Position numbers and translations under genes: made by a program. A DNA stretch of 64,000 nucleotides, from NCBI GenBank assembly GCA_049903315.1, contig JBNGBT010000008.1, forward strand, positions 1 to 64,000, given 5' to 3'. The notes under the pieces were generated by a model. That model was not told the origin of the DNA and did not search any database. It saw only the letters and a list, made by a program, of their open reading frames with translations. The stretch comes from Candidatus Cloacimonadota bacterium. Its GTDB lineage: Bacteria > Cloacimonadota > Cloacimonadia > JGIOTU-2. This document shows positions 35,319-56,842 of the stretch, piece by piece. The first letter of the stretch is position 1. Each line of letters opens with the position of its first letter.

Positions 35319-37151
35319 TTAAGGGCTAATTTGTACGATCTTCATACCCTCATTATCGATAAGCAGTTCATAACTGCCAAAATGAGTTAGTGAAGAAGGT
35401 TCTGTGGTCATTACATAATAACCGAGAATAAATGGATCTATAATTGAAGAAATATCAATTGTGATCAAGCCAATTTCGGAATCAGAAACATATGCATAGG
35501 AGTTAGTTACGTGAACTCCATTAACAAATCCATCAGTTTCTACCTCTGCTGTGTATGCAGGAGATGAAGGATTTGAGACATCAAGAATCAAGAGACCATC
35601 CTCGCTGTTTGCAATAAAAGCGTAGTTATTTTGAACAAAAATATCTTTCGCACCCGAAGTTGTATACGTGGAACTCAGGGTAGGATTATAGGGATCTGAG
35701 ATATCAAAAATTGCTATTCCATCTAAGCCCTGTGCAACATACGCGTGAGTTCCATCAACATAAATACTTTGAGCGTGACCGCCTGTTGTAATATTTGTCA
35801 CGGAATCAGGTGTTGAATTTGAAATGAAGAAAACGGTCAAACCATTGTCACCATCAGCTATGTACGCAAAATCTCCGACTACTTCAATATCGTATGGGAT
35901 GCCGGAAGTAGAGCTGCTTCCTGATAATTGAGGATTCAATGGGTTTGTGATATCAACCGTTGATATGATACCCGGAGCAGTACTGCCGCTATGACTTGTT
36001 ACATATAAAAAATTGTCCTCTACGTCAGAAGAAAGAACGCGGTCCTCAAAATCAAACATCGTATGCACAATATCAGGATTTTCAGGATTCCCAAAATATA
36101 TAATCTGCAAGCCTTCATAATTGTCCGGAACATAGGCATACCAGCCGGACGTGATAATATCCTGAGCAATACCTGGGGTGTTTACAAAACCGATGAGATC
36201 AAGAAGGACATTGGTCTGAGCTTCTTCGCTGTTTGCAGAAGTATAAATGCCGGAATATGCATTCACACGATAAGAGAATGTGCCGCATGGTTCTGTGATG
36301 TTGTCAATAAAGGAAATTGTGTTGCTATCGACCGTTGCATAATTGGTCACCCAATCTGTACCGCCGATCTTTTTATCAATATTAAAACCGACCTCTCCTT
36401 CACTGTTATCCTGCCATGTGAGTTTTATCTTGTTTTGATCGAGTTTCTGCAATGCAAGATTCGATGGGGCTAAAAGCGTAGGCACGATAGAATTTTCGAT
36501 TGATGAAGATGTCGTTGTGCCGACAAATGCTGAAACACGATAGAAGACCTCCTCAAAAAGATTAACGTCATCTATAAAAGAAGTAGCGCTCGCATTGAGA
36601 GTTCTGTATTTGCTTGTCCAGTTGCCTGTGCCTATTTTTTTATCAATATAAAAACCCTCATCACCAATACAATGGTCTTTCCAGCTTACTTCAACACGCG
36701 ATTGCGTTTTCTGTTCGATGATGAGATCGGTAGGATCACAATAGGTGGACATGTAAGCAACGACTTTTGAATAGGGAGAGGATTCATCAGTTGATTTATT
36801 GAGAAATTTTATCTTATATGCGTACACAAGACTGTCGTTTGTGGGAATGTTATCAAGATAAGTGAAAAATTGAGTTGAAATATTTTGATAACTATCGTTC
36901 CAGCTTCCTGTACCGACTCTTTTACCGATCACAAAATAGAGCGTATCAGAATCTGCATGATCAGGAATTTGATATGTCCAAGTAATTTCGACTCTACCCT
37001 CATCTGTTTTTTTGATCTTGAGGTTTGAAGGTGCATCAGAGAGATCGGGATCGGTCAAAGTGAGGTCACAGCTTGCAAGGAATAAGAAAATACCCGCAAA
37101 GAGAAGCAGCACGAGCAGGAGGGCGGATTTATTTGTTCTTTTTATCATCAT
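35319..37151 (-). CDS. Lipoprotein with fibronectin type III domains and LVIVD repeats
   Basis: Lipobox LASC; APSNL..LTWQDNS FN3 repeats; YAYVA..GL.I.DISDP repeats. Confidence 0.85.
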   Translation of the reverse strand: MMIKRTNKSALLLVLLLFAGIFLFLASCDLTLTDPDLSDAPSNLKIKKTDEGRVEITWTYQIPDHADSDTLYFVIGKRVGTGSWNDSYQNISTQFFTYLDNIPTNDSLVYAYKIKFLNKSTDESSPYSKVVAYMSTYCDPTDLIIEQKTQSRVEVSWKDHCIGDEGFYIDKKIGTGNWTSKYRTLNASATSFIDDVNLFEEVFYRVSAFVGTTTSSSIENSIVPTLLAPSNLALQKLDQNKIKLTWQDNSEGEVGFNIDKKIGGTDWVTNYATVDSNTISFIDNITEPCGTFSYRVNAYSGIYTSANSEEAQTNVLLDLIGFVNTPGIAQDIITSGWYAYVPDNYEGLQIIYFGNPENPDIVHTMFDFEDRVLSSDVEDNFLYVTSHSGSTAPGIISTVDITNPLNPQLSGSSSTSGIPYDIEVVGDFAYIADGDNGLTVFFISNSTPDSVTNITTGGHAQSIYVDGTHAYVAQGLDGIAIFDISDPYNPTLSSTYTTSGAKDIFVQNNYAFIANSEDGLLILDVSNPSSPAYTAEVETDGFVNGVHVTNSYAYVSDSEIGLITIDISSIIDPFILGYYVMTTEPSSLTHFGSYELLIDNEGMKIVQISP

Positions 37152-38325
37152 TATCCTCATCATTATTAAAAAGGTTTGACGCATCTTGGTTCTTTATACG
37201 ATGTTCCTCGATCTGTTGCTGCGTGGATAAGGCTTCTTTCTTACGGTCGTTGATAGGTTTAGAGATTTCCGCTTTAATAATAACAATCATTTCTCGCACA
37301 TTCGTCTCATACCTGTTTGATCCAGTAAGATAACGTATGCCAAGCACCCACCAGGGAAGATCTTTCAAGATTGGGATGCCAACCCGCGTCACAGTTTCGT
37401 CTGTATCGTATAAGCCACCGATAACTGTTTCCTCTCCATCATAGAGCAAAACTTCTGTCGAAGATTCGCTTTTATTAATGATGGTGCTGAGTTCACCTGG
37501 AGTTGCCGAGCTTTTTTGTACGCTTGCAACAAGATGAATAGCTTCGATATTTTCGTCCTCAACAACTGTCGGGGTCACAGTCATGATCACACCCGTCTGG
37601 AAAAACTCGTCAGTAACATTGCCGGCATCATCTTTCTTTTTCACAGAGAAATCTTGTCCGACCTGTATTTCACCTGTTTTACCGGAGATAACTATTACAG
37701 AAGGGCGTGCGATAATAGTGCCCTTCTGGTGTGATTCAAGAATAGTGAAAAGGGTATTAATATCGATGGAGACATCTCCGGACTCAAGCTTTGTCGCAGC
37801 AGATGCATTAAAGATATCCTGTCCGACACCAGCTCCCTTGAAATTTATCGATGCAACAACTTTTCCGTTGAAAAGGGTTGACCAGTCGATCCCGATACTG
37901 TTAAGAACAGATTTATCCGCTTTGAAAAATATGGAAGATATCTTAACCTGCTTTGTGTCGGGTGTGATATCTGCCTCCTCTCCCAATTCTTCTTGGAGTT
38001 CTTCAGCGGCATCTTTGATCACATAGGATCCGGGAAGGTCTTCAAGCACAAGATCATTAAAATTAATGATAAGAAAGAGAGCATTTTTCCAATATACTTC
38101 TTTAACGGGTACACCGATCGTTCCGGTAAATGAGCTCATATTAATGATCTTTTTTCCTTCAAATTGGATAGACATTACTTCGAGCGCACGAACCGCTTCC
38201 GGGAAAGGTGTGTCACGGGTCATTGAGACCAGTTCCTTATATGAAAATTCGTCATAGACCCATTGGGCGAATAAGGAAACTGTGGTGAATGAAAAAATTA
38301 AAAGTAATAGAATTATTTTTTTCAT
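37129..38325 (-). CDS. pilQ: Secretin (PilQ/GspD family), compact form
   Basis: IGIDW, IIARPSV..SG..G.I.VG, TGV.M.VTP, DGEETVIGGL, GIPILKDLP. Confidence 0.85.
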   Translation of the reverse strand: MKKIILLLLIFSFTTVSLFAQWVYDEFSYKELVSMTRDTPFPEAVRALEVMSIQFEGKKIINMSSFTGTIGVPVKEVYWKNALFLIINFNDLVLEDLPGSYVIKDAAEELQEELGEEADITPDTKQVKISSIFFKADKSVLNSIGIDWSTLFNGKVVASINFKGAGVGQDIFNASAATKLESGDVSIDINTLFTILESHQKGTIIARPSVIVISGKTGEIQVGQDFSVKKKDDAGNVTDEFFQTGVIMTVTPTVVEDENIEAIHLVASVQKSSATPGELSTIINKSESSTEVLLYDGEETVIGGLYDTDETVTRVGIPILKDLPWWVLGIRYLTGSNRYETNVREMIVIIKAEISKPINDRKKEALSTQQQIEEHRIKNQDASNLFNNDEDNDDKKNK

Positions 38326-39197
38326 AATTCATTTCCCTGTAAATACATTTTAACTTCTTGGTTAATACCAATTCGATTAATATTAAATACAGCGCATTGC
38401 TGTTTCCAGTTTATATAGTTGAGATAACCGTATGCAACCCGTGAGCCGGGCACAAGAGTCACAATTTGTCCGTTCATATCCCTGAGGAAGACCTTATCCG
38501 GAGTAAGACCTATGATAACAGAAGCATTTATATTGATGTATTTTTCTTCTTCAGTTCTGTCGAACGGTGCATGGATTTGTGAATAGAAAGGATTATATGT
38601 AAGATTTGAATAACTAAAACTCCGGAATGGTATCTCAGAGATTTGAGTACCGGTTTTCTTGTCATAATACACATTCAGCTTAAGAGAGAAATCAACGGTA
38701 TCTTTGAGGGCAGCTGAGGTTTCTGAAATTCGTATAGTTTCGATTACATAGAGAGGGGCTTGATATTCAACCTGATAGAGAAAGAAATGAAGTAATTCAA
38801 TATTTCCCGCCCCGTTCAAGGTATACGAATTAAAAGGAAGGTCTCCTTTTTTGCCACCCTGAGCGACCTTGAAATCAAAATTAAGACCCGGAGTAAAAGT
38901 CTCAGTGATATCAATAAGGTATTGGTATGTTTGACTGGGATTGTCTGTTTTCAGTATTATTTTATTATTTTCCAGAGCTTTTTTCTTCATTTCTTCAAGA
39001 GAGGCGATTATTTCATCTGTTTTATCAAGATCGGGATTGGTCTTTTTGAGCTGATTGAGTGTTTGTTGGTTTTCCTGAAAAACCCTTTCGCTCTTGTCAA
39101 GCCGCTTTACGGATTGAGAATTTGAGAGCATACCCACGAAGAAAACGAGGATGAGTAGTACACCAAGGATGATAGAGTTTCTTATTGCATAGGGCAT
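38322..39197 (-). CDS. PilO-like inner-membrane alignment protein with PilP-like C-terminal beta domain
   Basis: N-terminal TM, coiled coil, ferredoxin-like pattern; tail IIGL..KVFLRD.NG.IV.L.PG.RV.YG; directly upstream of secretin. Confidence 0.6.
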   Translation of the reverse strand: MPYAIRNSIILGVLLILVFFVGMLSNSQSVKRLDKSERVFQENQQTLNQLKKTNPDLDKTDEIIASLEEMKKKALENNKIILKTDNPSQTYQYLIDITETFTPGLNFDFKVAQGGKKGDLPFNSYTLNGAGNIELLHFFLYQVEYQAPLYVIETIRISETSAALKDTVDFSLKLNVYYDKKTGTQISEIPFRSFSYSNLTYNPFYSQIHAPFDRTEEEKYININASVIIGLTPDKVFLRDMNGQIVTLVPGSRVAYGYLNYINWKQQCAVFNINRIGINQEVKMYLQGNEL

Positions 39198-39201
39198 TGC
39201 A

Positions 39202-42066
39202 TCAATCCTTTACTTCTATTGCTTTGAGCTGAGCAATATCAGCGAGACGATTGTGGGGATAACGGGATATCAGCTCGTTCCAGTAATAAAGAGCTTTGTC
39301 CTTATCATCGAGCCGATAATATGAATTGCCAAGCATCATCAGGGCATCAGGCGATTTAACAGAATTGTTTTCAACAACAGCGCTGAAAATTGTAATTGCT
39401 TCCGGAATATTGCCCATTTGGTACTGAGCTTCTCCGGTAAAATATTCGGCATGTGATGCGAGTTCACTGTCTGGATATTTCCTTAGAAATGAACAAAAAT
39501 CATCATATGCGCCCCGAAGATCATTCGCAAAATATTTATCTAGAATGGCGGAGTACGTATTTTGAATTTCTTCCTGATTGTTCACCTTTGGCTCTTCTAC
39601 AGTTTTATCAACCGATTCATGTGCGACATCAACCTTCGTGATCCAAAAATCATGATAGGCATTCTGCTGCATGCTGATCTTCTGTCCAAGGTCAAGTGCT
39701 TCATTTCCGGAAAGTAGATTATCAATCCGAAGTCTGTAAATAACACCCTGACTGGTAGATACTGGAATAATTTTAGTATCAAATCCAGCTAATTTGAGTT
39801 TTTTCTGTTCGTCAAGAACAGTAGCATAGTTGCCATCAGCATACAATTGAAGCTCATATTGTGTCTCAAGCTGATTTTCCTGAACTTGGATTTTCTTTGT
39901 TTGTTCAAGTTGAGATTCAGTTTGAGAATATTGGTTCATTTTTTCATTTGCAATTGACGCCAAACGATTATTGGGATATTCATGAATTATCCGATTCCAA
40001 TAAAATTTTGCCTGCTCAACATTGTTGTTTTTTGCATAGGCATTTCCGAGCATCATAAGAGCATCCGGAGTTTTAATACCATTCTGAGTAACAACTTTAT
40101 CAAAAACGAGAATTGCCTGATCGATATCATCCATTTGATACAAACACTCACCCAAAAGATAGCTTGCACTGTGAGAATACTTGCTCTCCGGGAAGTCAGA
40201 AAGGAATTCCTTGAATTGGTCATATGCTTTCTGGAAATTTCCGGAAAAATAGAGCTCAATTATCTGATTATACCGGGTTTTATCATTATTTGAAAAAGTC
40301 TGAGGTTTCTTCACAGGCTCTTCTTGATTCTCTTCAGCTGGAGTGAAATTTTCTATTTGAACCTGGGGCGATTTAAGGTGCTCTTTATTTTTTATGAATT
40401 CAATACCTGGGCCACCTTCCTTTTTTTGCTTTGCTATTTCAATGGGATCAGGATATCCAAAAGTGATATCGTATTGCCAAATCTGTACATTTTGTATAGT
40501 GTTTTCAGTAACCTTCTCAACATTGCCATTTGGGAAAAGATTCGAAAACGGGATCACATTCCTTTTTCGTGTAGTAAAACCACTCACCTTGAACGTTTTA
40601 TCCTGGCTATTCAGAGAGGTGAGCCAGCTAATCTTGTGGTCTTTAAATGAATTTGAAATAACATTTAATATATAGTACCACTGATTTTTATTACCAATTA
40701 GTTTATCAACTTTTTTTAGATTTTCCTGAAGGACTTCGATATCACCCTTAACTTGTTGAAGTTTGATAACGATGGCGCGGTTCTTCCTCAATTCAAGTTC
40801 GACCTGACTATTTTCTCGGTTAATCTCGATAATTTCTTTTCCAACATTAAGATTTTTAAAAGTTGCAGAGAAGGCAACATAGAAGATAGCAGTAAGTACA
40901 ATAAAACCGTGCCAGGCAATTTTAAAGGGTTTTTGGTTTTCAATTATTTTGGACGGAAGAAGATTACAGGGATAGAAATTTCTGTTTCGTCCCTCAAGAG
41001 ATTTCCAGGCGAGGGCAATCGGAATACAGTAATCTGCAATGCGCTCTGGCGGAAAAGTTTCTTCTTTTGCCTGAGGAATGTGCAACTTTTCAAGGGAGAT
41101 GCGAGAAATTTGAGCACCGGAATTGATCCTGTTGCGGAAAAATTCAACATCGTCATCTTTTGCCATTTCACCAGTCAGAATGATATTGCTTGTGATATTT
41201 ACATTTGAAGTATCTTGCTCAAGAATTATCTTTGAGTAGATCACTTGTCTCATGTGCTCGAGGTCGGACTCAGGGACGATAAGAGGGAAGTTCTTTACGA
41301 AATCGTTCCCCTTCATTACAATACCGAATTTGGTGTCGATGCCGATATAGATCAACAATACATATTCATCAGCCGAAAAATCGTAATTATTGCGAACAAG
41401 ATTCATGAGAGAAACTTCAATTGGTTCGATAAAGCTGTAGAAGAATCTCTTCTTGGAAATGAGCGGATTTATATCCTGTAAGGCATGAAGTATATCATTA
41501 CTGCCTGTTTCTGTAAAGGAGAGAATAGAGTTATCTTTATTTTTTATAAAATCAAAGGTATTATCTTTATTTTTCTGCTCTTCTTTTGAGAGGAGCTCGT
41601 CCTTTAGTTTCTTTTTGATTTTGGACCGGGAATGCGACTGGGAAAAGGTTTCATCAAACTGAGTAAATGAGATGTCTTCTTCAAGAGCATTCATTGATAT
41701 TCTGCATGTATCAAGAGGAAATTGTGAGATAAGTTTTTGAAATTCCTGCTTACCCGTCATTATGGGTTCTGCTTCTTCGGCAGATCCATAATCAGCTTCT
41801 TCTAGCTCTGCAAGGTCAGGGATCTTAAAATCCTCAGAAAAGTCTGCGAGATCTGGAATTGGTTCTTCATCTTCAGATTCGATATGTAATTCAGTTTCGG
41901 GTTCATCATGTTTTTCCTCATGGGGGTATAGAGGAAAAGAAAGAGTCGTTTCTGTAAGCTCTGTGAGACTTATCTTCCCATTAATAACCGATAGCTGGGC
42001 GGCTTTAATGGTCAAGCCATCCTGGTAAATACCAAGTGCAGTTTTTCCGTTTTTAATTAATTTCAT
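39202..42066 (-). CDS. PilM-PilN-like fusion with two CpoB/YbgF-like TPR domains and a SPOR-like domain
   Basis: ALGIYQDG..IKAAQL actin-like start; NLLP motif then TM and coiled coil; 2x Y..GE..YQM...PDALMMLGN.Y...YP.NRLA; YELQL...GF...GVIYRLRI. Confidence 0.7.
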   Translation of the reverse strand: MKLIKNGKTALGIYQDGLTIKAAQLSVINGKISLTELTETTLSFPLYPHEEKHDEPETELHIESEDEEPIPDLADFSEDFKIPDLAELEEADYGSAEEAEPIMTGKQEFQKLISQFPLDTCRISMNALEEDISFTQFDETFSQSHSRSKIKKKLKDELLSKEEQKNKDNTFDFIKNKDNSILSFTETGSNDILHALQDINPLISKKRFFYSFIEPIEVSLMNLVRNNYDFSADEYVLLIYIGIDTKFGIVMKGNDFVKNFPLIVPESDLEHMRQVIYSKIILEQDTSNVNITSNIILTGEMAKDDDVEFFRNRINSGAQISRISLEKLHIPQAKEETFPPERIADYCIPIALAWKSLEGRNRNFYPCNLLPSKIIENQKPFKIAWHGFIVLTAIFYVAFSATFKNLNVGKEIIEINRENSQVELELRKNRAIVIKLQQVKGDIEVLQENLKKVDKLIGNKNQWYYILNVISNSFKDHKISWLTSLNSQDKTFKVSGFTTRKRNVIPFSNLFPNGNVEKVTENTIQNVQIWQYDITFGYPDPIEIAKQKKEGGPGIEFIKNKEHLKSPQVQIENFTPAEENQEEPVKKPQTFSNNDKTRYNQIIELYFSGNFQKAYDQFKEFLSDFPESKYSHSASYLLGECLYQMDDIDQAILVFDKVVTQNGIKTPDALMMLGNAYAKNNNVEQAKFYWNRIIHEYPNNRLASIANEKMNQYSQTESQLEQTKKIQVQENQLETQYELQLYADGNYATVLDEQKKLKLAGFDTKIIPVSTSQGVIYRLRIDNLLSGNEALDLGQKISMQQNAYHDFWITKVDVAHESVDKTVEEPKVNNQEEIQNTYSAILDKYFANDLRGAYDDFCSFLRKYPDSELASHAEYFTGEAQYQMGNIPEAITIFSAVVENNSVKSPDALMMLGNSYYRLDDKDKALYYWNELISRYPHNRLADIAQLKAIEVKD

Positions 42067-42080: not shown

Positions 42081-43295
42081 TTATGAATATGTAAGAAGCT
42101 GCTCCATTCTCTTTCTATTATTGGAGTAGTTTAGAGCCACTTCTTTTGTGATTTCACCTTTCTTGTAGAGATTGAAAAGGTCTTGTTCCAGGGTTATCAT
42201 CCCATATTTCTTACCTTCAGTGATCATCTGGTAGATTTCACTAATGTTTTGATTTCGAATCGCAGCTTTAACAGAAGGGGTTACAGAAAGAATTTCTTTT
42301 GCGAGACTTCGTTTACCTTCTTTATTTGGAACTAATTTTTGTGAAAGTATTACAGAGAGTGTATCAGCAAGACGGAGACGAATTCGTTCTTGTTCCCGGG
42401 TTGGGAATTCGCCGACTATTCTGTGAAGACTGTCGACAGCTGAGCTTGTGTGAAGAGTAGAGAACGCTTTATGTCCGCTGTCTGTTGCTTCCAGGACTCT
42501 CGCGATAGTATCGGGATCTCTCATCTCGCCAACTATTATCACATCAGGATCCTGACGCAACGCCTGCACAACACCATTTTTAAAAGAAAGCACATCTTCC
42601 CCAACCTCTCTGTGGCGGAGTATACACCTGTCAGATTTATGAACATATTCAATAGGTGCACCGATGATAATAATATGTGCATCATTATTATGATTGTTCA
42701 TATCTATAATCGAATCCAAAGTGCTACTCTTTCCCGAACCCGTAATACCGGTAATGAGAATTAGACCTGATTTCTCATATTGCAGATCCATTCTTTGAAT
42801 GATCGGTTCAGGAAATCCGAGGACTTCAATTTTCAAGAGATTCTGATTGATTCTGCGGAAATTACCTACAAGCACATTGCTTTCATAATAGATATCACTA
42901 CGAAATCTGCTGGGACGCTCACCTTCTTCAAGAACCATTCCGACAGAAAGGTCAACATTTTTATCTTTAAAAAGAAGAACTTTCTGATCATCCGATAACA
43001 CGCTGAGAAGAATAGCGGTAACCTCATCATTATTATAATGTGGCATCTCAGCATTCGGGGATTTATTTCCGTAAATCCTGTACCAGACATTGTTGTTCGA
43101 GCCGGGTCCGCCGATATCAAGGTCAGAAGCATCTATTTCCCGCATGTACTTCAGGAGCTTGCGAAGGTGTTCATATGCCTCTTCCCGCCATGCTGCATTG
43201 TAAGTTATGATTTTATTAATGTTCTGAAAACGGCTTGTTCCAGTTAAATATTCTGGTAAACCAACAAGCATTTCCGGAGTAAATGATAAGCCCAT
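42081..43295 (-). CDS. pilT: PilT/PilU family retraction ATPase
   Basis: GITGSGKS, ALRQDPDVIIVGEMRD, GH..FSTLHT, GMITLEQDL. Confidence 0.88.
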   Translation of the reverse strand: MGLSFTPEMLVGLPEYLTGTSRFQNINKIITYNAAWREEAYEHLRKLLKYMREIDASDLDIGGPGSNNNVWYRIYGNKSPNAEMPHYNNDEVTAILLSVLSDDQKVLLFKDKNVDLSVGMVLEEGERPSRFRSDIYYESNVLVGNFRRINQNLLKIEVLGFPEPIIQRMDLQYEKSGLILITGITGSGKSSTLDSIIDMNNHNNDAHIIIIGAPIEYVHKSDRCILRHREVGEDVLSFKNGVVQALRQDPDVIIVGEMRDPDTIARVLEATDSGHKAFSTLHTSSAVDSLHRIVGEFPTREQERIRLRLADTLSVILSQKLVPNKEGKRSLAKEILSVTPSVKAAIRNQNISEIYQMITEGKKYGMITLEQDLFNLYKKGEITKEVALNYSNNRKRMEQLLTYS

Positions 43296-43362: not shown

Positions 43363-44214
43363 CTATTTCTCGCCGGTTACGAGTTTGAGCATGACAATAC
43401 GCTGAATAGATTTTCTCCATTTTGAAAAGAGACAATTAATGAGGTTGATCATGAAGCGTTTCATAAGACGTTCACCTTTGTAGGCGAAAAAGTCGAGAAG
43501 CTTCTTCCGTTCGAAAAAGCGGATTTTACACGTAGTTTCGGACCGAAGGGTCGTGAATGTTGAACTTGCAAGTATGAAGTTTTCTTCAGCCCAGCTATCG
43601 TTCTTTCGAAGGTAGTCGACAGTAGTATTGCTCAACCAGATAGAGACTTCGCCATCTTCTACCAATACGATCGAGTTGGCGTTTTCATTATCAAGAGTAA
43701 TATTTTGTCCTGCTTCGAATTTGCGTATCCTTCCAAGAGCCATGAAATCATCTTTTTCTTCTTTCGTGAAGCCGTGAAGTATTGCCGGTTCATTTTTTGT
43801 GCCTTCCGTACCTGGCTCAAAAGCTTTTTGGAGAGGACCATACAGATCTTCTCCATACTGCAATCCTTTTTTCACTGCCTCGAGAAGCTCTTCTGCATTG
43901 ATGGGTTTAGAAAGATACTGGAAGGCTCCTGCGTGAACCGCCTTGACCGCACCCTCAATGCTGGAAAATCCCGTAGTGATGATGATTACGGCAAGGGGTT
44001 GTTTTTTCTTGATGCGTTTCATGGTTTCAAGCCCGTCCAATCTCGGCATGACCATATCAACCATGTAGAGGTCAAAGTCATCATAGTTCATCTTATCAAG
44101 GCCGTCCTGTCCGTCCACAGCAAGAGTGACCTTGTAGCCCTCTTCTTCTAAGAACTCTTTGCACAGCTCTCTGATGCTTTCCTCGTCATCAATGATTAAA
44201 ATGTGTTTTTGCAT
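43363..44214 (-). CDS. Response regulator: receiver plus cyclic-nucleotide-binding-like domain
   Basis: IDDE, VDMVMP, TTGF, SKP; C-terminal RKFEAGQNI...IVLVEDGEVSI..DYL..NDSWAE cNMP-fold pattern. Confidence 0.8.
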   Translation of the reverse strand: MQKHILIIDDEESIRELCKEFLEEEGYKVTLAVDGQDGLDKMNYDDFDLYMVDMVMPRLDGLETMKRIKKKQPLAVIIITTGFSSIEGAVKAVHAGAFQYLSKPINAEELLEAVKKGLQYGEDLYGPLQKAFEPGTEGTKNEPAILHGFTKEEKDDFMALGRIRKFEAGQNITLDNENANSIVLVEDGEVSIWLSNTTVDYLRKNDSWAEENFILASSTFTTLRSETTCKIRFFERKKLLDFFAYKGERLMKRFMINLINCLFSKWRKSIQRIVMLKLVTGEK

Positions 44215-48050: not shown

Positions 48051-48599
48051 CTATATATATAGATTCTTAAAATATTTCCAAATTTGGATACGATGCAGGA
48101 TAAATCTTTTATCAATATCTTCACGAAAGGTATCATATTGAAATTCCATAATCATTTGAACATAGCGAACAAGAGAATCAGCTGGATTAGGATTATCATT
48201 GACATCATAATAAGTGAACTGAATACCAAAATCCGAGAGCTCAAATGGACCAAGAACAGGTGTGACACTTCCGTCAACATAAACAGCGAGTTGTTTATTA
48301 TCGGCAAGATCTTCCTGTGCCATATTCACAATATGCCTGGCGCCGCCCACACTATCAGCATAGGAAAAGGTAAAGAGCGTATCCTGTGTAGAGATGACAG
48401 CAGAATCTGCAACACCAGCTCCCACGAGAGAAAGATAACTCTCTATTACTGATACAACATCTTCAGAGATTTCGACCAACTCAATCTGTTCATTTATATT
48501 AACACCGGCTGCATGAAGATTAATAATTGATGTGATCATAGTAAGAATGAAAATTCCACCAATTATTGTTGCACCAATTGCTTCTAATATCGCAGCCAT
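48051..48599 (-). CDS. Minor pilin-like protein (PilW-like position)
   Basis: N-terminal hydrophobic helix MAAILEAIGATIIGGIFILTMI; IQFTYYD motif; context. Confidence 0.6.
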   Translation of the reverse strand: MAAILEAIGATIIGGIFILTMITSIINLHAAGVNINEQIELVEISEDVVSVIESYLSLVGAGVADSAVISTQDTLFTFSYADSVGGARHIVNMAQEDLADNKQLAVYVDGSVTPVLGPFELSDFGIQFTYYDVNDNPNPADSLVRYVQMIMEFQYDTFREDIDKRFILHRIQIWKYFKNLYI

Positions 48600-48601: not shown

Positions 48602-49036
48602 TTAATAATATAAATCCACAAACACTTTGCTTATTGGATATTGCGGCATACCGATCCAGAGAGTATCACCATCCGGATGGAGAGCCCACATGCTCATATC
48701 AACCCGAATAAATTCGGGAGTTACTGTAGCCGTGTCAGCTCCGGTTACTGTGCAGGGAGTTGTAGTAATGTTAAGATGATAAACCAAATCAGACACAGTT
48801 AGAGAATCGGAGCGACCATTATATGAGGTCTGAAGTCCATCAAATGGTAAAATGTTACCCAAAATCTTTGCCTCTATCTCTTGAAAGTATTTATCAAGTA
48901 TTTTTTGTCCGTTTAAAAGATACATTCCTTTATATGCAAGATCAGCCTGGTCGAAAAGGCTATTATATGTTGTCAGATATATGGTGGAAAACAGTACCAT
49001 TGCAAGAAGGATAAGGAATATCTGTCCGTAGGTCAT
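48602..49036 (-). CDS. Minor pilin-like protein (PilV-like position)
   Basis: MTYGQIFLILLAMVLFS hydrophobic start; 144 aa; directly after pilB. Confidence 0.6.
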   Translation of the reverse strand: MTYGQIFLILLAMVLFSTIYLTTYNSLFDQADLAYKGMYLLNGQKILDKYFQEIEAKILGNILPFDGLQTSYNGRSDSLTVSDLVYHLNITTTPCTVTGADTATVTPEFIRVDMSMWALHPDGDTLWIGMPQYPISKVFVDLYY

Positions 49037-49038: not shown

Positions 49039-50823
49039 TTAACCCTCAGATGTCGCATAGGACACTTCAGAAACTGATGTCAGCCCTTTGCGTATCCTAT
49101 CCAATCCTGAATCAAGAAGAGAAAGCATGCCCTGTGTTTCTGCAATTTTGCGTATTTTGTCTTCATCGATATCATCGCCGGATTCCATGATAGCTTTTCG
49201 TATTTCATCTGTGAAGTAGAGTGCCTCGCAGATATTTACACGGCCTTTATAACCGTTCATGCATTTTTTGCAGCCATTACCGGCTTCATACACTAAGCCC
49301 TTTTTTAGATCTTCTTCTGTCAGTCCAAGTTCAAGAGCTCCTTTATACTTGTCTCGGGAAAGAGGGCGTCTACACTCTGGACAGAGTTTTCTTACCAGAC
49401 GCTGGGCGATAATTATGTTCATTGCATAGGCAAGAAGGAAGGTTTCGACCCCCATTTTATAAAGCCGTGATATTGCACTTGGTGCATCATTTGTATGAAG
49501 TGTAGAGAATGTTAAATGACCCGTGTTTGCCAATTTTACGGCTACATCAGCAGTGATCTTATCGCGGATCTCACCCACCATTACAATATCAGGGTCATGA
49601 CGGAGAATTGAACGAATCGCCTGATCAAAGGTCATTTTTGCGCCGATCTTTAATTGTCGTGCTCCTTTGATAACATACTCAACCGGGTCTTCACAGGTGA
49701 GCACATTTTTGGAGGGATCAATCACATGATGAAGGGCAGCCATAAGAGTCGTACTTTTACCACTGCCGGTAGGACCAGTGAGTAAAATAATCCCTTTGGA
49801 TTTATTAACAGCCTTGAGGAAATCTGATTCCGCCTGTTTTTGTAGACCCAATTTTTGAAGATCAGTAATTACATTTCGGTCATCAATAACACGGATCACA
49901 ATACTTTCAAACCGGCGTTCATACTCAGAAGAAATAATTGGAAGCACAGACACACGAAAACGGATCAAATAACCGTCAACAATTCGCTGCGCAAAACCAT
50001 CCTGAGCATTGTCTCTTTCAAACCTATCGATTCCGCTTGTTCGGTCTTTCACAACTGCGGCAATAGCTTCAGGAGAGGTTTTTTCCTGGCGGTGCCATTG
50101 AATCAGTTTGCCATCAACACGGAACAGAAAATCAACATTGGAACGTTGATAAGGTATGATATGAATATCACTTGCCCCTTTTCGAACTGCCTCGATAAGG
50201 CTTCCTTCAAAAAGGTTGACGAGTAAGCTTTTGTTGATCTCATCATCAAGAGCATATTCGTCTAGCCCCTCTTCTTTTCCTTCTTCCGGAACTTCCTCGA
50301 TCTGCTCGCCGGCTTCACTGAGAATTTCCAAAAATTCGTTTTTTTGAGGAGCGATTATCTTTATGAGTTCCTCGACAGTAGATAAAGGGCAGTAGGCTAC
50401 CTCGTATTTTTTAAACTCAGTATTCAGCGGGATTTTTTCCACAATTTTATCAGTCGGATCAGCAGCAAGAATCACTAAAGTAGTGCGTCTTCCTTGTGCG
50501 ATTTGATAAGGAAGCACCTTCCTATACAGCAATTCACGTTTCAGATCATCAGGAAACTTTGAAAGTATATCTCTCGTATGTTTTATTTGAGTTTGATCCA
50601 GCTTATCTACATTGATTTCTACTTTTCTAAAAGCATAAAGATCGGCAAGAAGTCCATAGACATCATCATGTTTGACCTTAAGGTCAGCAACCAGAATGTC
50701 CTCCAATCTTCTGGGATTGGATGGATCTTCATCTGCCTGAATGATAAGAGCTTTATTTAAGACATCTTTATCAATAACGCCTTTATCAACTAATAGTTTG
50801 CCTAAGCGTGATTTTCCTAACAT
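49039..50823 (-). CDS. pilB: PilB/GspE assembly ATPase with N-terminal MshEN motif
   Basis: ASDIHI, GPTGSGKST, EDPVEY, LRHDPDIVMVGEIRD, STLHTND, CPEC...CKKC zinc site. Confidence 0.95.
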   Translation of the reverse strand: MLGKSRLGKLLVDKGVIDKDVLNKALIIQADEDPSNPRRLEDILVADLKVKHDDVYGLLADLYAFRKVEINVDKLDQTQIKHTRDILSKFPDDLKRELLYRKVLPYQIAQGRRTTLVILAADPTDKIVEKIPLNTEFKKYEVAYCPLSTVEELIKIIAPQKNEFLEILSEAGEQIEEVPEEGKEEGLDEYALDDEINKSLLVNLFEGSLIEAVRKGASDIHIIPYQRSNVDFLFRVDGKLIQWHRQEKTSPEAIAAVVKDRTSGIDRFERDNAQDGFAQRIVDGYLIRFRVSVLPIISSEYERRFESIVIRVIDDRNVITDLQKLGLQKQAESDFLKAVNKSKGIILLTGPTGSGKSTTLMAALHHVIDPSKNVLTCEDPVEYVIKGARQLKIGAKMTFDQAIRSILRHDPDIVMVGEIRDKITADVAVKLANTGHLTFSTLHTNDAPSAISRLYKMGVETFLLAYAMNIIIAQRLVRKLCPECRRPLSRDKYKGALELGLTEEDLKKGLVYEAGNGCKKCMNGYKGRVNICEALYFTDEIRKAIMESGDDIDEDKIRKIAETQGMLSLLDSGLDRIRKGLTSVSEVSYATSEG

Positions 50824-50839: not shown

Positions 50840-52183
50840 TTACATACCGGGTGTTTTGGGCGAAACTGTTGCGATTTCTGCAGAAACAACAGTTAATGCT
50901 GTTATAACAATACCAATAAATGCTCCTATAAGTGTTTGAATAGATGAAATCAGATTTTGCATTTTGTAGGTTGTTTCTTTTTCATAAAATTTTGCGATCT
51001 GTTGAGCCGCAGTCAGCACATTACCGGTTTCCGAACCTGTTTTGAATCTACTTAAGGTTGTTTGATTAAACACCTTTGCTGCGGCAAGTGCAGGCACAAG
51101 GGACATCCCTTCCTTAAGCATCAGCGGTATTGTTATTTCTTTAATATTTTTTTCCATGTGTGCATTTCTACACGCCTCAGCAGACGCTTGAATTGTTTCA
51201 ATGTTGTTTTCAGCGCCAGAATATATTGCTGCGAATACACGACAGAAAATTTCTATGCTGGATTTATGTAGGAGTTTGCCAATAACAGGAAGCTTGATAA
51301 TCATAGCATCACGCCAAACGCGGCCATCAGGTGTCCGCCACCAAATACCTAAACCAATGATTGGTATAATTACCATGAATGCCATCCACCACCAATTGGC
51401 TGCAAAGAAATCACTCATCTGAAGTGTGGCAGCAGTAAGCTTTGGCACCTCAACACCGGATTTTATAAATAATTCCGCAGTAGTGGGAAAGATAGAAATA
51501 ATATAATAAAGCACAGCTGCGATCATTGCCAGAACAGTGAACATCGGTGTCATCAATGCCTGTTTCAAGCTCTTTTTATATTCCATATCCCGTTCCATGA
51601 ACTTCGCAGTTGCATCATACACTTCTGCCATGTTACCACTTTTGGTAGCAAGACCAAGCATATAAGCGGGGAATTTACCAAAGACATCAGCATATCGGTT
51701 AAAAACCTCTGTTCCTTCTTTACCCTTTTTAAGTTCACTTTCAATTTTTTTCAGCGTGGATCTTAGTGTCGGGTTTGTTTCTTCTTCAGCAAGCATACGT
51801 AGAATTTTATCATAGCTCATTTGTTCCTTGAGCAGGAAGGAGCTGAGATTGACGAACATAAGGATATTTGCAAAGGATGGTTTGGATTGAAAGTCAAAAA
51901 TTACGGGCTCGATCTTCGCATTAGTATATCCAATTCTTGCAAGCGCTTGTGCGAGTTCTAGCTTAGAAAAAGCAACTTGTTTTCCCTTAACCTTTTTACC
52001 GCTTGGTAGTTTTATTTTATAGATGAAGTTTGTTTTTTGGTCAATTTGATTTACAGAAATATTCTGCTTTATTTCAGTATCATGAATGAGCTTTTTGGCG
52101 TTTGATTTGGAGCTTGCAAGAACAACGCCCTGAACAGAATTACCTGATTGGTTAATTCCTGTATAGCGAAATTCTTTTAACAT
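50840..52183 (-). CDS. pilC: PilC/GspF platform protein
   Basis: Two T2SSF-like domains (KSGNM, GSETGNV), KLPVIG, LPKLT-like VPKLT, 3 TM. Confidence 0.9.
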   Translation of the reverse strand: MLKEFRYTGINQSGNSVQGVVLASSKSNAKKLIHDTEIKQNISVNQIDQKTNFIYKIKLPSGKKVKGKQVAFSKLELAQALARIGYTNAKIEPVIFDFQSKPSFANILMFVNLSSFLLKEQMSYDKILRMLAEEETNPTLRSTLKKIESELKKGKEGTEVFNRYADVFGKFPAYMLGLATKSGNMAEVYDATAKFMERDMEYKKSLKQALMTPMFTVLAMIAAVLYYIISIFPTTAELFIKSGVEVPKLTAATLQMSDFFAANWWWMAFMVIIPIIGLGIWWRTPDGRVWRDAMIIKLPVIGKLLHKSSIEIFCRVFAAIYSGAENNIETIQASAEACRNAHMEKNIKEITIPLMLKEGMSLVPALAAAKVFNQTTLSRFKTGSETGNVLTAAQQIAKFYEKETTYKMQNLISSIQTLIGAFIGIVITALTVVSAEIATVSPKTPGM

Positions 52184-52196
52184 GATAGGGGATTAT

Positions 52197-52240: not shown

Positions 52241-52262
52241 ATTACATTAAATAGAAATACGA

Positions 52263-52685
52263 TTAGTTATCGATAACCATCGCAACAGGGTCCGTGGAAG
52301 TGGCAACAACAGTGGCAGTAATTTTTGTGTTAGTAGCAGAGCTATTACCCGGTTCAGTACCAGTTCCAACAATTGTGATTGTACTCGCGTTCGTACGGGT
52401 GAGTGTATAGGTGCCGTTGTCATTGGTGTATGTATTGTCACCATTAAATCCAATCCATACAACAAGTGTGTCCATAGAAGCTTCGAATGTTCTTCCGCCA
52501 CCACCATGTGATGTAGGGGTTTTGTAATAAGCGATCATTTGAGATGCAAAGTTGTTTGCATCTGCAACCAAAGCTTGACGGTTAGCATTTTGTGCCTGGG
52601 TATTAAACATTGTAATACCTACTGCAACGGCAATACCTACGATAATAACGCTCAATACGATGAGCAGAATTTGTTGAGTTCCCAT
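52263..52685 (-). CDS. Probable major pilin, non-canonical (leaderless)
   Basis: 140 aa; AGGAGG RBS; MGTQQILLIVLSVIIVGIAVAVGITMF then amphipathic helix and beta-rich head; own promoter and terminator; first gene of the pil cluster. Confidence 0.8.
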   Translation of the reverse strand: MGTQQILLIVLSVIIVGIAVAVGITMFNTQAQNANRQALVADANNFASQMIAYYKTPTSHGGGGRTFEASMDTLVVWIGFNGDNTYTNDNGTYTLTRTNASTITIVGTGTEPGNSSATNTKITATVVATSTDPVAMVIDN

Positions 52686-52758
52686 GGGATCCTCCTGGGT
52701 TTTTTATTGTTCGTAACTTACAAACTTCACGTCTATAAAACAATTCATAATTTTATAG

Positions 52759-52774
52759 AACAAGTTTCGTGCCA
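52759..52774 (-). promoter_or_regulatory. Sigma-54 (-24/-12) promoter of the pilin gene
   Basis: Minus strand TGGCACGAAACTTGTT vs consensus TGGCACG-N4-TTGC(A/T); one mismatch at -12. Confidence 0.75.
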
Positions 52775-52932: not shown

Positions 52933-52938
52933 CGGATA

Positions 52939-55245
52939 CTATTTGTTTTCAAGAGCTTTTAAGAAGGATTTTGGGATTGTAATGCCTAATTTTTCTGCTT
53001 TTTGAATATCCTCTCTTGCATTATCATATTTTCCGAGAAAATAAAAAGACACTGCCCTTTTCTGATACAAAATACCGCAGTCAGGCTCAATATTGATCGC
53101 TTCGGTATACGATTGTGCTGATTCTGAAAATAATTTCTCTTTGCTTAAAATATCACCTTTGGTGATAAGAATTTCTATATTATTCTCTGCGAGAGAGATG
53201 GCTGTGTTAATGTCATTTATTGCCTGCTCAAAGTGCCCTATTTCAGAGTAAAGAAGAGCTCTCTTAATATAAGCATTCACAAAAGTATCATCAAGCAACA
53301 GGGCTTGATTGTAGTCTTCAAGAGCAGCAGCATAATTCTTTTCAACAAAGTTAACTTTACCTCGCAAATAATAGGTTTGCGATCTTTGAGGATTCAGTTC
53401 TATGGCTTTTGAAAAGTCATCTATAGCTTGAGAAAAGTTCCCAGTATCAAAATATAAGATGCCCCGATTACTATAAGCCATTTCATCATATGGATCAATT
53501 TGGAGAACCAGGTTATAATTTTCAAGAGCTATGTCATACCGTTTCATTCCAGCGTACGCAATGCCGCGATTAAGATAGGCTGCTGTGTAATTTGGTAATT
53601 GCGCAATAGCCTTATTGTAATATACGATAGCAGAATCAGGATTATCATTTTCTGCATATGTGAGACCAATGTTATAATAGGATTTAGGTTGGGAGGAGTT
53701 CAGTAATAGTGATTTCTTATAATCTTCCAACGCACTTACAACATCCCCTTTTCCTTTGAGTGCATTACCCCGATTGATATAAACTTCATAGTAAGATGGG
53801 TTAAATTCGAGAGCTTTATTAAAATCATTAAGCGCTTCTTCGTTTTGATCCGATTGCAAAAAAGAAAATCCCCTGTTATTATACGAAGACGCATCCTGGG
53901 GATTTATTTCAAGTGCACGATTAAAATCAATGATAGCCTTATCATATTGCTGCAGCTTATTATATGCAGCACCTCGATTATTATATGCAAAAGTGTTGGG
54001 TTTGCCATAGTTCAAAGCATGTGTCCAAAGTGAAAGAGAATTTTTCCACACTGGAATTTGAACAAAACCGGTGAGGATCGTAAAGCATAGAATTAAGCAA
54101 ATTGTCGGGACCCACACTTTTTGAGTTTTATACGTGCTAAGCAACCAGCCCACCACTAAGGCAATGCCGAACAAGGAGAAGTACATATACCTATCGGCGA
54201 CATTCGACCATTTTTGAAAGTTAAAGGATACTAAACCGAAAACAGGCATAAATCCTACGATAAATATAATCAGTGAGAGAAGTATAAATGAATTCTTTTT
54301 ATATAATTTTACTGCAAAGAACACAAGCAAGACAGGTATTACCCATTCGAGGTAAAACAAGAATTTCGATATAAGAGTCTGGAATGTCCTTGTATAAGTA
54401 ACAACTAAAGGATAGGGAATGAGCGTCTTCAAGAAATAGAAATTAATCGTATCCATCCAGATAAAAAAGCGAGACCAGAGCGGAGCAATTTCTGTATGAT
54501 AGGAAGCTGGTTGAACAAATCGGAGTATTAAAACAAAAGGGATGGTAGCGATGATGAACGGAATAATCTTTTTGAGGGAATGCCATAAATTTTCTTTAAA
54601 ATATAAAAAATAGATAAGGAATGCAAAAGCTGGAATCACAACAACTGAGGGTTTGGAGAGCATGCCCAAAACAAATAGGATAAGTGAATTAATATACCGA
54701 ATCGTGCAGCATCTCTTAGAAATACTCTTCTTTAAGAATTCATTTTTTATTAATATGTAAAGTGAAGAAAATCCAAAGAAGGCAGCAAGCAAACCCCGGA
54801 ATTCTGTGATCCATACAACTGGCTCAACCTGTAGAGGGTGAAGGATAAAAATCAGTGTCCCAAAGAAAGCGGACCATTCATTATTAATAAGCAATTTCAG
54901 GATTCTGAAAACGAAAAGTCCATTGAAAATATGAAAAAGAATGCTAAACAAATGAAAAGCAAAGGGATTAAATCCATCAACTCTTTGTCCCCAAGGAATA
55001 AGTGTGCCTATCTCTTTTATTAATGCCCATGCTGTATAAGGCATCGGAATGTACATTTGTGCATATGGCTTTGTCCAGAAATGAAGAACATTCTTGAAAG
55101 AAGTATATTGAAGATACCGATTCTCGATAAGATTAGGATCCTTATCATCCCACACAAATTCATAAGATGTGCACTGCCAGTAGACAGCAAGAGGGATCAA
55201 AATAAGCAGCAGGTAAATGAGTAATCGGGATTTCGACTCTTTCAT
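52939..55245 (-). CDS. TMTC-like GT-C membrane glycosyltransferase with long TPR array
   Basis: FVWDD, HPLQVEPVVWI, SKP, ADRYMY, WKNSLSLW; about ten AYxNRG-type TPRs. Confidence 0.8.
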   Translation of the reverse strand: MKESKSRLLIYLLLILIPLAVYWQCTSYEFVWDDKDPNLIENRYLQYTSFKNVLHFWTKPYAQMYIPMPYTAWALIKEIGTLIPWGQRVDGFNPFAFHLFSILFHIFNGLFVFRILKLLINNEWSAFFGTLIFILHPLQVEPVVWITEFRGLLAAFFGFSSLYILIKNEFLKKSISKRCCTIRYINSLILFVLGMLSKPSVVVIPAFAFLIYFLYFKENLWHSLKKIIPFIIATIPFVLILRFVQPASYHTEIAPLWSRFFIWMDTINFYFLKTLIPYPLVVTYTRTFQTLISKFLFYLEWVIPVLLVFFAVKLYKKNSFILLSLIIFIVGFMPVFGLVSFNFQKWSNVADRYMYFSLFGIALVVGWLLSTYKTQKVWVPTICLILCFTILTGFVQIPVWKNSLSLWTHALNYGKPNTFAYNNRGAAYNKLQQYDKAIIDFNRALEINPQDASSYNNRGFSFLQSDQNEEALNDFNKALEFNPSYYEVYINRGNALKGKGDVVSALEDYKKSLLLNSSQPKSYYNIGLTYAENDNPDSAIVYYNKAIAQLPNYTAAYLNRGIAYAGMKRYDIALENYNLVLQIDPYDEMAYSNRGILYFDTGNFSQAIDDFSKAIELNPQRSQTYYLRGKVNFVEKNYAAALEDYNQALLLDDTFVNAYIKRALLYSEIGHFEQAINDINTAISLAENNIEILITKGDILSKEKLFSESAQSYTEAINIEPDCGILYQKRAVSFYFLGKYDNAREDIQKAEKLGITIPKSFLKALENK

Positions 55246-55246
55246 A

Positions 55247-56842
55247 CTATTTTTCCTGTGATGCTTTTGCTAACGTTTTCATGAAATGGCTATTGACCTC
55301 TATGCCACGGATCTGCGCTTTACGAATTTCATCCCACGCTTTATCATATTCTTTAAGGTAATAATACACAACCGCCTTACTAATATAAGCAATTGCAAAC
55401 TCTGAGTCGATTTTGAGGACAGAATTAAAATATTCAAGGGCTTCATCAAAATTTTTCTGTCCGAGCAAGAGATATCCTTTTTTATACAAAGCTTTTGTAA
55501 AGCCAGTATCATAAGTTACAGCATTTTCAAAGTCCGCATTTGCCGCATCATACATTTTTAAACGCATGAAAGCGTTACCCCTATTATAATATGCATTTGC
55601 CTCAATAGGAGTTTTCTCAATACAATGGCTCCACAGAGTAAGATTATTTTTCCAAACTGGCACCTGGATCAATGCTGTGTCTGCAGCAAGAAGCGCAATA
55701 AGAGCGATTATCAAAAATTTCAAAGGTTTATAAGAAAAATATCTATACACTGCACCAACAAGTAGTGCCATTCCTATCATTGATATGTATATATATCTAT
55801 CTGCAACTGTTGACCAATTTTGAAAGATAAAGGGGACAAGTCCGGAAACCGGCAAGAATCCTATTATAAAAACGAAATATGCAAAACTTACATTCTTTAT
55901 TCTTTTACGATACGCAATAAGTAATATCAAAAAAATCAAAGGAATTATCCAGATGACGTAAGGCATCCAGGAAGAAAGAACGCGCTGTGTTGTACGTGCA
56001 TAAGAGGGAGAAAAGTTAAGAGGAATAAAAATTTTCTTAAGATAGAAAACAAGGGAGTCCATCCAGATAAAAAAACGCGAAAACAGAGGGACTTCATTCT
56101 TTAGAATAAAAGCAGGCTGGAATAATTTTGTGATGTACACGACAAAAAGCGATATGAAAATATACGGAATTGATCGCTTGATGATCTGTTCCAAACGAAG
56201 TCCCTTGAACATAAGTGCATAAATGAAAAAGATTGGAAAGAAAACAACTCCGATTGGTTTCGATAAAACAGAAAATAAAAATAGGACAATGCAAAGAAGT
56301 GTATCAAAAACATTTTTCTTGATTTGAGACAGCGATTTGTCTGCTGCAAGAAAAAACAGTAAACCCCAAAATGTCGAAAAGAGACCGCGGAACTCTGTCA
56401 CCATCGAAACCGCTTCAGCCTGGATGGGGTGAGCAAGGAAAATAAGTGTTCCAATGAACGCAGCAGAAGTATTTTTGAGAATTTTTCGTAGAAAATAAAA
56501 AACAAGAATGCAATTTATACAGTGAAAAAGCACATTAAAAAAATGGAAAAAAGAAGTATTAAAAGGAAATCCTGTTAAAAATTTACTGATTAATGTTATA
56601 ACAAAAATTGCAGTGTATGAGATTGGAATGTACATACCCTGATATGGCTCGGTCCAGAAGTGGAGAAGATTCTGAAATGAAAGTTTTTCTAGATAGGGAT
56701 TCTGTACAAGATGAGGTCCGTTGTCATCCCATACAAAATCATAAGTGAGAGTTTGTCCGTAGATGATAGATGTAAAAATGATCAGCAGGAGCACAAGAAG
56801 TGCAACAGAAGTTCTCTTTGTATCTAATGCACCTTTTTTCAT
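55247..56842 (-). CDS. TMTC-like GT-C membrane glycosyltransferase with short TPR array (paralog)
   Basis: FVWDD, HPIQAEAV, SKP, ADRYIY, WKNNLTLW; about three TPRs. Confidence 0.8.
   Translation of the reverse strand: MKKGALDTKRTSVALLVLLLIIFTSIIYGQTLTYDFVWDDNGPHLVQNPYLEKLSFQNLLHFWTEPYQGMYIPISYTAIFVITLISKFLTGFPFNTSFFHFFNVLFHCINCILVFYFLRKILKNTSAAFIGTLIFLAHPIQAEAVSMVTEFRGLFSTFWGLLFFLAADKSLSQIKKNVFDTLLCIVLFLFSVLSKPIGVVFFPIFFIYALMFKGLRLEQIIKRSIPYIFISLFVVYITKLFQPAFILKNEVPLFSRFFIWMDSLVFYLKKIFIPLNFSPSYARTTQRVLSSWMPYVIWIIPLIFLILLIAYRKRIKNVSFAYFVFIIGFLPVSGLVPFIFQNWSTVADRYIYISMIGMALLVGAVYRYFSYKPLKFLIIALIALLAADTALIQVPVWKNNLTLWSHCIEKTPIEANAYYNRGNAFMRLKMYDAANADFENAVTYDTGFTKALYKKGYLLLGQKNFDEALEYFNSVLKIDSEFAIAYISKAVVYYYLKEYDKAWDEIRKAQIRGIEVNSHFMKTLAKASQEK

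Follow-up and report, generated by a model that had tools for sequence, protein, structure and literature searches.

According to a field review (Pelicic 2023, PMC10191384), a class III signal peptide is an invariable feature of prepilins, and the prepilin peptidase belongs to a set of four proteins common to all type IV filament systems. The leader is described there as hydrophilic, cytoplasmic and cut before assembly, and Glu5 as pairing with the N-terminal amine of a neighbouring pilin. Mannose-sensitive haemagglutinin (MSHA) pilus loci have no prepilin peptidase gene and, according to the available part of one survey, their genomes always carry another peptidase-bearing system (Denise 2019, PMC6668835). 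For the complete genome of Melioribacter roseus, the accessible text reports pilT, pilQ, pilB and pilC as found and pilA and pilD as not found; its authors read the cluster as probably incomplete, and leaderless pilins were not recognised (PMC3534657). A 'Pili IV cluster' is named without detail in the accessible text on Caldithrix abyssi (PMC5317091). Here we analysed a locus of about 20 kb on the minus strand of a 64,000-nt stretch (the window; contig JBNGBT010000008.1, assembly GCA_049903315.1) from a Candidatus Cloacimonadota genome (G000, the host; 96% complete). An original prediction, made from the letters of the window, had read it as a non-canonical type IV pilus system that may be independent of the prepilin peptidase PilD. 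Our results make it likely that the locus encodes a retractile filament, similar to type IVa pili (T4aP), that is built from uncut pilins and needs no prepilin peptidase. Judged by their published accounts, the M. roseus and C. abyssi clusters are probably this same system.

The predicted gene order was correct. Every gene lies on the minus strand and together they form one co-oriented cluster, the sole type IV machine of the host genome, with the following parts (TM, transmembrane segment; TPR, tetratricopeptide repeat):

52691..52696, minus strand: Shine-Dalgarno (SD) word AGGAGG, 5 bases 5′ of the pilin ATG, which pins the leaderless start
52263..52685, minus strand: major pilin, 140 aa, MGTQQ followed by 22 hydrophobic residues; type IV pilin fold by prediction, class III leader absent
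50840..52183, minus strand: PilC platform protein with an N-terminal extension
49039..50823, minus strand: PilB extension ATPase with Walker A, Asp box and two CxxC motifs; weak MshEN-like match
48602..49036, minus strand: putative minor pilin, PilV/GspI-like (labelled by position)
48051..48599, minus strand: putative minor pilin, PilW/GspJ-like (tentative label), start MAAILE, Gly-free before the helix
46051..47961, minus strand: large minor pilin, PilX/GspK-like, MGK start at ATG 47961, DUF7305 domain
45156..46046, minus strand: second PilX/GspK-like minor pilin, MGK start
44232..45131, minus strand: PilS-like membrane sensor; HisKA matched, HATPase not; same position in the host family
43363..44214, minus strand: response regulator with a cNMP-binding-like domain
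42081..43295, minus strand: PilT retraction-type ATPase with an N-terminal extension and altered Asp box
39202..42066, minus strand: PilM(likely)-TM-PilN fusion with CpoB/YbgF-like TPRs and a weak SPOR match
38322..39197, minus strand: PilO-PilP fusion, 291 aa, by predicted structure and fold comparison
37129..38325, minus strand: short secretin, 398 aa (family median 422)

The predicted structure of the 140-aa protein shows the type IV pilin fold. The model (pLDDT 89.4) had the PAK pilin as its best Foldseek row (TM-score 0.62, E 0.11), and comparison with six pilins and pseudopilins gave moderate values (VIA Z 8.0-8.4, rmsd 2.4-3.7, 79-113 residues aligned), the best rows all being pilins. 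Structure and profile alignments placed Gly17 and Phe27 on the canonical Gly14 and aromatic 24 with an offset of 3; the N-terminal register is ambiguous, since offsets of 0, 1 and 3 all occur, and none of them yields the G|F...E5 motif. A major-pilin profile came no closer than E 0.014-0.11 to Geobacter and Thermus pilins in the PDB, and hhalign to four canonical pilins gave a negative result. Neither the major pilin nor either of the two short minor pilins matched a pilin family, and PF07963 had no match anywhere in the host genome, which supports the view that standard pilin predictors would miss these proteins. To locate the N-termini, 148 pilin starts were picked by motif in operon loci: an SD-like word accompanied 141 of them and 134 had no in-frame start further upstream, which ruled out a longer leader hidden by a wrongly annotated start. 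Among 268 homologues compared, 255 started M-G, the 13 set aside being truncated starts and longer, unrelated-looking proteins. These 255 carried Gln5 (254) and Gln4 (250) and never a Lys or Arg in residues 1-10; residue 3 of the major pilins varied (Thr in 192, Gln in 40, others). The fixed starts and the M-G-x-Q-Q N-termini lacking Phe1 and Glu5 bear out the leaderless pilins of the original prediction. No class III signal peptide is present, at most the two residues M-G could count as a leader, and the N-methyl pilin motif G|F-x-x-x-E5 is missing. Separately, six longer proteins (P0176, P0202, P0222, P0229, P0263 and P0267) had a pilin-like globular region at the C-terminus; by eye, one is Ser/Thr kinase-like and the others lipoprotein- or zinc-ribbon-like.

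The minor pilins, which fall into three families tentatively labelled V-, W- and X-like by position and pattern, were compared in the same way, 7 of 39 V-like rows falling off the trimming pattern and 9 of 43 W-like rows being left untrimmed. Among 30 distinct V-like starts, Gln, Glu or Asp stood at residue 5 (24) or residue 4 (6); a Gly preceded it in only 11, and 13 had no Gly at all in residues 2-5. Some V-like pilins start M-N-M-M-E, that is, as a mature pilin with Met in the place of Phe1, indicating that Glu and Gln exchange at this site. Of 33 W-like starts, 32 had an acid six from the closest Met; a Gly came before the acid in 8 and was missing there in 25. X-like pilins mostly start M-G-K/R. 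Judged by these N-termini, the minor pilins would often offer nothing that PilD could cut. HMM comparison of the V-like and W-like alignments with the PDB gave nothing significant, the W-like match to the Thermus pilin TTHA1219 being weak (E 1.8), and a predicted complex of V, W and X2 minor pilins scored 0.78 against 0.74 for the control, which does not separate them. The large PilX/GspK-like protein is a candidate tip adhesin. Local V and W genes were missing from 24 of 35 near-complete loci; that such operons need no minor pilins was rejected, as five of five tested genomes had unlinked copies. Of six W-like genes from unlinked minor-pilin loci of Ignavibacteria-class genomes, five encode the acid at residue 8, and MG-FST is the start of three.

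The absence of an A24 peptidase gene from the 64-kb window, noted originally, was confirmed, and did not extend to the genome: another contig carries a full and intact orphan PilD, unlinked to the locus (G000:C55:7694-8452). Absence from the window therefore proved nothing, and the argument for PilD independence must rest on other genomes. Cloacimonadota are uninformative on the need for PilD, because most of them also carry canonical pilins of a second T4aP locus: A24 matched in 112 of 121 genomes and canonical N-methyl pilins in 103, and this ordinary second locus ends in pilD in G010 and G043. We thus relied on other lineages for the proposed genome search and co-occurrence check, using PF01478, PF06750, PF06847 and PF06550. 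In 101 Ignavibacteria-class genomes (completeness filter 95), a full PilB of the operon type was present in 54, of which 53 were pilin-positive, and A24 matched in only four of the 101. Specifically, 49 of the 53 genomes with pilin and PilB had no detectable A24 (controls matched in 12 of 14), supporting PilD independence. The complete operon was present in 12 of 16 regions inspected, and 10 of these 12 came from A24-negative genomes; one such genome, G233, has a 3.15-Mb contig that makes up nearly all of its 3.2 Mb. Five A24-negative genomes gave no match to the SPP-type family PF06550, none over cut-off to the archaeal-type PF06847 and none to PF01478 at E<=1; a single-protein PilD search of five genomes, which had no positive control, was empty. 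A weak A24_N match in G148 belonged to a radical-SAM-like protein by sequence, a similar one was seen in G156, and G148 was discarded as an example carrier because its PilB is truncated. Where A24 does occur, it mostly goes with canonical pilins. Among 38 pilin-positive genomes outside Cloacimonadota, A24 and PF07963 were both found in 15, neither in 19 and one alone in 2 + 2 (Fisher p 1e-6, an overstated value since related genomes are not independent), and in G201, G192, G132 and G010 PilD lies inside a separate canonical locus. In the Marinimicrobia-phylum sample A24 showed no association with the pilin (7 of 13 pilin-positive versus 42 of 68 pilin-negative genomes). As far as gene content can tell, prepilin cleavage is probably dispensable in this system. 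Archaeal type IV filaments lacking Glu5 also assemble, their pilins still being cut by PibD or FlaK; the window-type system differs in that PF06847 stayed under the cut-off in the five genomes tested. Unlike MSHA carriers, most Ignavibacteria-class carriers have no detected peptidase at all, and PilT is present.

The operon is widespread. The pilin profile matched 1856 clusters at 50% identity (E<=0.001), and pilin-positive genomes made up 86 of 121 in Cloacimonadota, 54 of 101 in the Ignavibacteria class and 13 of 81 in the Marinimicrobia phylum; a search of plasmids found no match. Named homologues of the window pilin belong to Cloacimonadota, and record titles place the operon also in Kryptonia, Calditrichota, KSB1, Latescibacterota and Gemmatimonadota. 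In at least eight lineages of the Fibrobacterota-Chlorobiota-Bacteroidota (FCB) type the operon reappears, its genes in the conserved order pilA-C-B-[minors]-T-MN-OP-Q. A quick maximum-likelihood tree was built from 66 rows, with eight named references and long-branch warnings; in it the 31 operon PilBs formed one clade (SH-aLRT 100) on a long stem of 1.47, outside the group (support 88) that contains the canonical FCB rows, GspE and the PilB of proteobacteria. Operon recurrence and the separate clade in this tree agree with the distinct FCB-lineage subfamily that had been proposed. The pilB, pilC and pilT genes are under strong purifying selection (ratio of non-synonymous to synonymous substitution, dN/dS, 0.015-0.035), pilin and PilB occur together in 53 of the 55 Ignavibacteria-class genomes having either, and gene order is conserved across lineages. 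These results make it very improbable that the locus is a relic, in decay or unable to assemble, with pilins that never leave the membrane, a reading that could point to the altered Asp box of PilT and to G148, which has pilins and only a truncated PilB. The pilin is among the fastest-changing genes, and up to 13 leaderless copies occur in one genome, in tandem arrays and as scattered copies (for example G012:C2:711024-715793), suggesting antigenic or phage-driven variation. In one metatranscriptome (word share 0.06), contigs of a 90-95% alike relative spanned 27 of 30 bins; such contigs demonstrate no transcription and give no ranking of genes. Six small (1.5-1.6 Mb) single-contig Cloacimonadota of family f3 had no leaderless pilin, canonical pilin or A24 over the cut-off, a pattern that reads as loss of both pilus systems.

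The machine proteins resemble those of T4aP. PilC has two T2SSF domains. PilB matched PF00437 and its best NCBIfam model was type IV-A PilB (404 bits, under the cut-off of 675), ahead of GspE at 375; for the window secretin, the PilQ model similarly beat GspD (85 versus 62.5). Among solved structures, T4aP PilB entries ranked ahead of GspE, the top ones presumably being of the Geobacter and Myxococcus type, with organisms taken from entry codes. PilT matched TIGR01420 with 321 bits, over the cut-off of 319.1. In 53 homologues from the loci it has an N-terminal extension of about 60 residues and an Asp box G/A-S/H/A/D-P-I/V-E, which reads GAPIE here instead of EDPIE; owing to this family-wide change, PilT-driven retraction can be called likely and no firmer. 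The 954-aa protein has one TM at residue 381 with PilN behind it (E 3.4e-10). The residues before the TM are probably PilM: their nearest named Atlas clusters were PilM_2 (score 0.88-0.90), there was no Pfam or PDB HMM match, and hhalign against two canonical PilM was negative. The tail with TPRs and SPOR was added locally; homologues are mostly about 510-540 aa long. The model of the second fusion matched PilO 2rjz (Z 11.3, rmsd 2.2, 92 residues aligned) and, in its PilP half, GspC-HR 3oss (Z 8.4) and PilP 2y4x (Z 7.7). The fused alignment complex that had been predicted thus stands for PilO-PilP, by fold, and for the PilN half, and more weakly for the PilM half. The secretin domain PF00263 covers residues 196-354 of the 398-aa protein, in which AMIN, STN and Secretin_N were not matched. 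It is as short as had been said, but this is nothing special, since the canonical Cloacimonadota PilQ is likewise short (479 aa) and without an AMIN match. Elsewhere, a secretin of this family is fused to a C-terminal outer-membrane beta-barrel (L076:6052-8064, 670 aa), and some Ignavibacteria-class genomes carry a second divergent PilB paralogue just 5′ of the pilin genes (G159:C49:28152-29798, G208:C5:8128-9783 and G217:C42:47800-49434).

A short periplasmic pseudopilus that moves protein or DNA through the secretin, in the manner of a type II secretion system (T2SS) or of competence, was also considered. The short secretin and tight single operon are consistent with it, as are the match of the PilP half to the GspC HR domain and the lack of a described filament for cultured carriers in the accessible portions of the literature covered. 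We regard it as unlikely, however, because PilT lies in the operon, PilB is closest to T4aP PilB among solved structures, the pilin is fast-changing, surface-antigen-like and present in up to 13 copies, and large tip-type minor pilins are encoded. By the definitions in the review cited above, the locus has the extension ATPase, platform protein and pilin fold of the type IV filament superfamily (Pelicic 2023, PMC10191384), and, for T4aP, it has PilT and, as fusions, PilN, PilO and PilP; PilT sets it apart from T2SS. With T4aP of Myxococcus, Geobacter, Thermus and Pseudomonas the system shares PilB, PilC, PilT, the PilN/O/P folds, the secretin, the pilin fold, the Gly14 and aromatic-24 equivalents and a putative sigma-54 promoter with a PilR-like activator. 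In contrast to them, it lacks the class III leader, Phe1 and Glu5, its operon has no peptidase gene and its genome usually no detectable one, PilMN and PilOP are fused, the PilB clade sits on a long stem and the PilT Asp box is altered. The canonical T4aP of Cloacimonadota (G010, G003, G043) has the same part classes and a short secretin in the same phylum, but differs in its G|FxLxE pilins, in having PilM/N/O/P as separate proteins and, usually, in a PilD of its own; its PilC, PilB, PilT and PilQ are 23-38% identical to those of the window. This canonical locus is absent from the host genome, and many relatives carry both systems. The system works like T4aP but, since its pilins have no class III signal peptide, is no plain member.

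Several observations weigh against a filament of uncut pilins. A24 was present in 85 of the 86 pilin-positive Cloacimonadota. The host genome and six other genomes of its family (f1) have A24 and no PF07963 match, a search for canonical prepilin substrates in the host gave 0 matches (control, 13 of 15 loci), and PilD of the host genus is under purifying selection (dN/dS 0.07, from one unsaturated pair). All four A24-positive Ignavibacteria-class genomes were pilin-positive (p 0.12); three of them have canonical pilins beside A24. Gly2 hardly varies among major and X-like pilins, a constancy beyond what Met removal alone demands, and three W-like pilins of A24-negative genomes have a cleavage-site-like start, MG-FST-L-[LI]-D, which is a cut site or else the relic of a leader. 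In addition, PilT has lost conserved Asp-box residues, the genomes compared were mostly metagenome-assembled, and neither a filament nor a pilin N-terminus has been observed so far. The host pattern could mean that an orphan PilD is kept in its Cloacimonadota lineage to trim MG-pilins, other lineages doing without. PilD there is intact, retaining both catalytic Asp and the C4 finger, and selected, without a canonical pilin or second machine in the host genome, and a family search found the same pattern in six relatives. We nevertheless judge this distinctly unlikely. G081, of the same family (94% complete, 190 contigs), has the pilin and first operon genes and no A24 match, and in G090, from a different family, PilD is found at this unlinked site too, so that its position is inherited. 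Moreover, the dN of the host PilD (0.19-0.30) exceeds that of its neighbours (0.04-0.14) and of the pilus ATPases (0.03-0.06), its N-terminal GSF motif is decayed, and the host W-like pilin has no Gly before the helix. Cleavage after Gly2 by a non-A24 peptidase, either an unrecognised membrane protease or Met aminopeptidase with a second aminopeptidase, would account for the conserved Gly2 of the 255 major pilins and most X-like pilins; the W-like MG-FSTLLD without MG would also have the same mature length as MSSLLD. In that case the system would do without PilD, though not without processing. This too appears improbable, as residue 3 is variable in major pilins and Lys or Arg in X-like pilins, the early Gly is absent from many V- and W-like pilins, and the operon maps show no conserved peptidase-like gene.

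Additional features flank the pilin gene on its 5′ side:

52761..52774, minus strand: -24/-12 motif, sigma-54-type, 5′ of the pilin gene; a sequence pattern with putative promoter function
52939..55245, minus strand: TMTC-like multi-TM and TPR protein, putative O-mannosyltransferase, accessory; operon linkage not conserved
55247..56842, minus strand: second TMTC-like putative glycosyltransferase, accessory
56853..58280, minus strand: PilR-like sigma-54 activator, beyond the locus as first delimited; same position in relatives
58284..60401, minus strand: sensor histidine kinase partnered with the PilR-like activator

The -24/-12 pattern also lies about 90-100 nt 5′ of many Cloacimonadota pilin genes. 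The PilR-like activator is a probable regulator of the pilin promoter, and the motif together with the upstream PilR-like pair suggests ordinary pilA-type control. As to the adjacent glycosyltransferases of the original prediction, two TMTC-like genes do adjoin the locus here, but they are not conserved with the operon and their identity comes from homologue names only. Their products have 9 predicted TM segments and TPRs; among the 120 homologues listed, four are named 'protein O-mannosyl-transferase' (JGI) and one has a PMT_2 match. Neither window protein matched a Pfam GT family, and the membrane part had no Pfam or PDB match. Such genes were found in the host and G062 only, out of four host-genus genomes inspected, and in 0 of 35 near-complete operon loci, by which glycosyltransferases were rejected as a general part of the system. 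In G252 a PMT_2 gene adjoins an array of pilins. This gene, the TMTC-like neighbours and a pilin head rich in Ser/Thr (28 of 113 residues) suggest patchy glycosylation of the pilin, which is no fixed part of the system. Directly behind the secretin, 35319-37184 (minus strand) encodes a putative Fn3/LVIVD-repeat lipoprotein, also present in relatives and possibly a pilotin or adhesin; in several Ignavibacteria operons and at the canonical locus of Cloacimonadota, pilQ is likewise followed by a lipoprotein-like or large gene. At 29618-35318 (minus strand) two large proteins are encoded in the same orientation; both carry a T9SS-type sorting domain at the C-terminus, and their common repeated module begins W-x-x-x-x-GTQY-S/T-M and has no Pfam family. 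A gingipain-like Peptidase_C25 of 1684 aa at 8559-13613 (plus strand) is presumably ordinary for this phylum.

A filament of uncut pilins might be assembled as follows. As a signal anchor, the pilin would insert into the inner membrane and keep its short, uncharged MGTQQ cap in the cytoplasm, trimmed at most by housekeeping deformylase and Met aminopeptidase. Removal of Met would expose Gly2 as the N-terminus. Such a five-residue uncharged cap would hold the pilin little in the membrane, so that cutting would be unnecessary and a pilin without a charged leader could be extracted by PilB and PilC. The invariant Gln5 would replace Glu5. Alternatively, signal recognition particle binding might leave the formyl group on the pilin N-terminus; with no free amine to neutralise, the change from Glu5 to Gln would be explained. 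In the available text of PMC5454389, such retention is shown for signal-anchor proteins and less often for the N-in topology. Pilins are N-in, a topology more often deformylated according to that text, which makes formyl retention the weakest link. The V-, W- and X-like minor pilins would prime the tip, where the W-like acid and X-like Lys or Arg might pair, and the fused PilMN and PilOP would bridge to the short secretin, the divergent PilT retracting the filament. Surface attachment is a likely use, with pilin variation and local glycosylation perhaps acting as shielding; twitching or DNA uptake may be further uses. On balance we favour, if somewhat less firmly than the uncut filament itself, a type IV filament clade over many FCB-type phyla in which the peptidase step was abolished, the N-terminus being initiator (formyl-)Met or Gly2 and Glu5 having changed to Gln.

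No published description of the family is apparent, and among type IV filaments it is probably the first whose construction dispenses with a prepilin peptidase; our literature search, which lay mostly outside subscription journals and supplementary tables, retrieved no leaderless or peptidase-independent type IV pilins. A natural system without leader or peptidase would allow the roles of cleavage, N-methylation and Glu5 to be tested, separating membrane escape from docking, and cultured carriers are probably available. It would also account for the 'incomplete' pilus clusters of published genomes and expose a large unannotated pilin family missed by pilin signatures. If this interpretation is true, type IV filaments would have three 'core proteins' instead of four, and pilins would be encoded by thousands of genes that now lack annotation.

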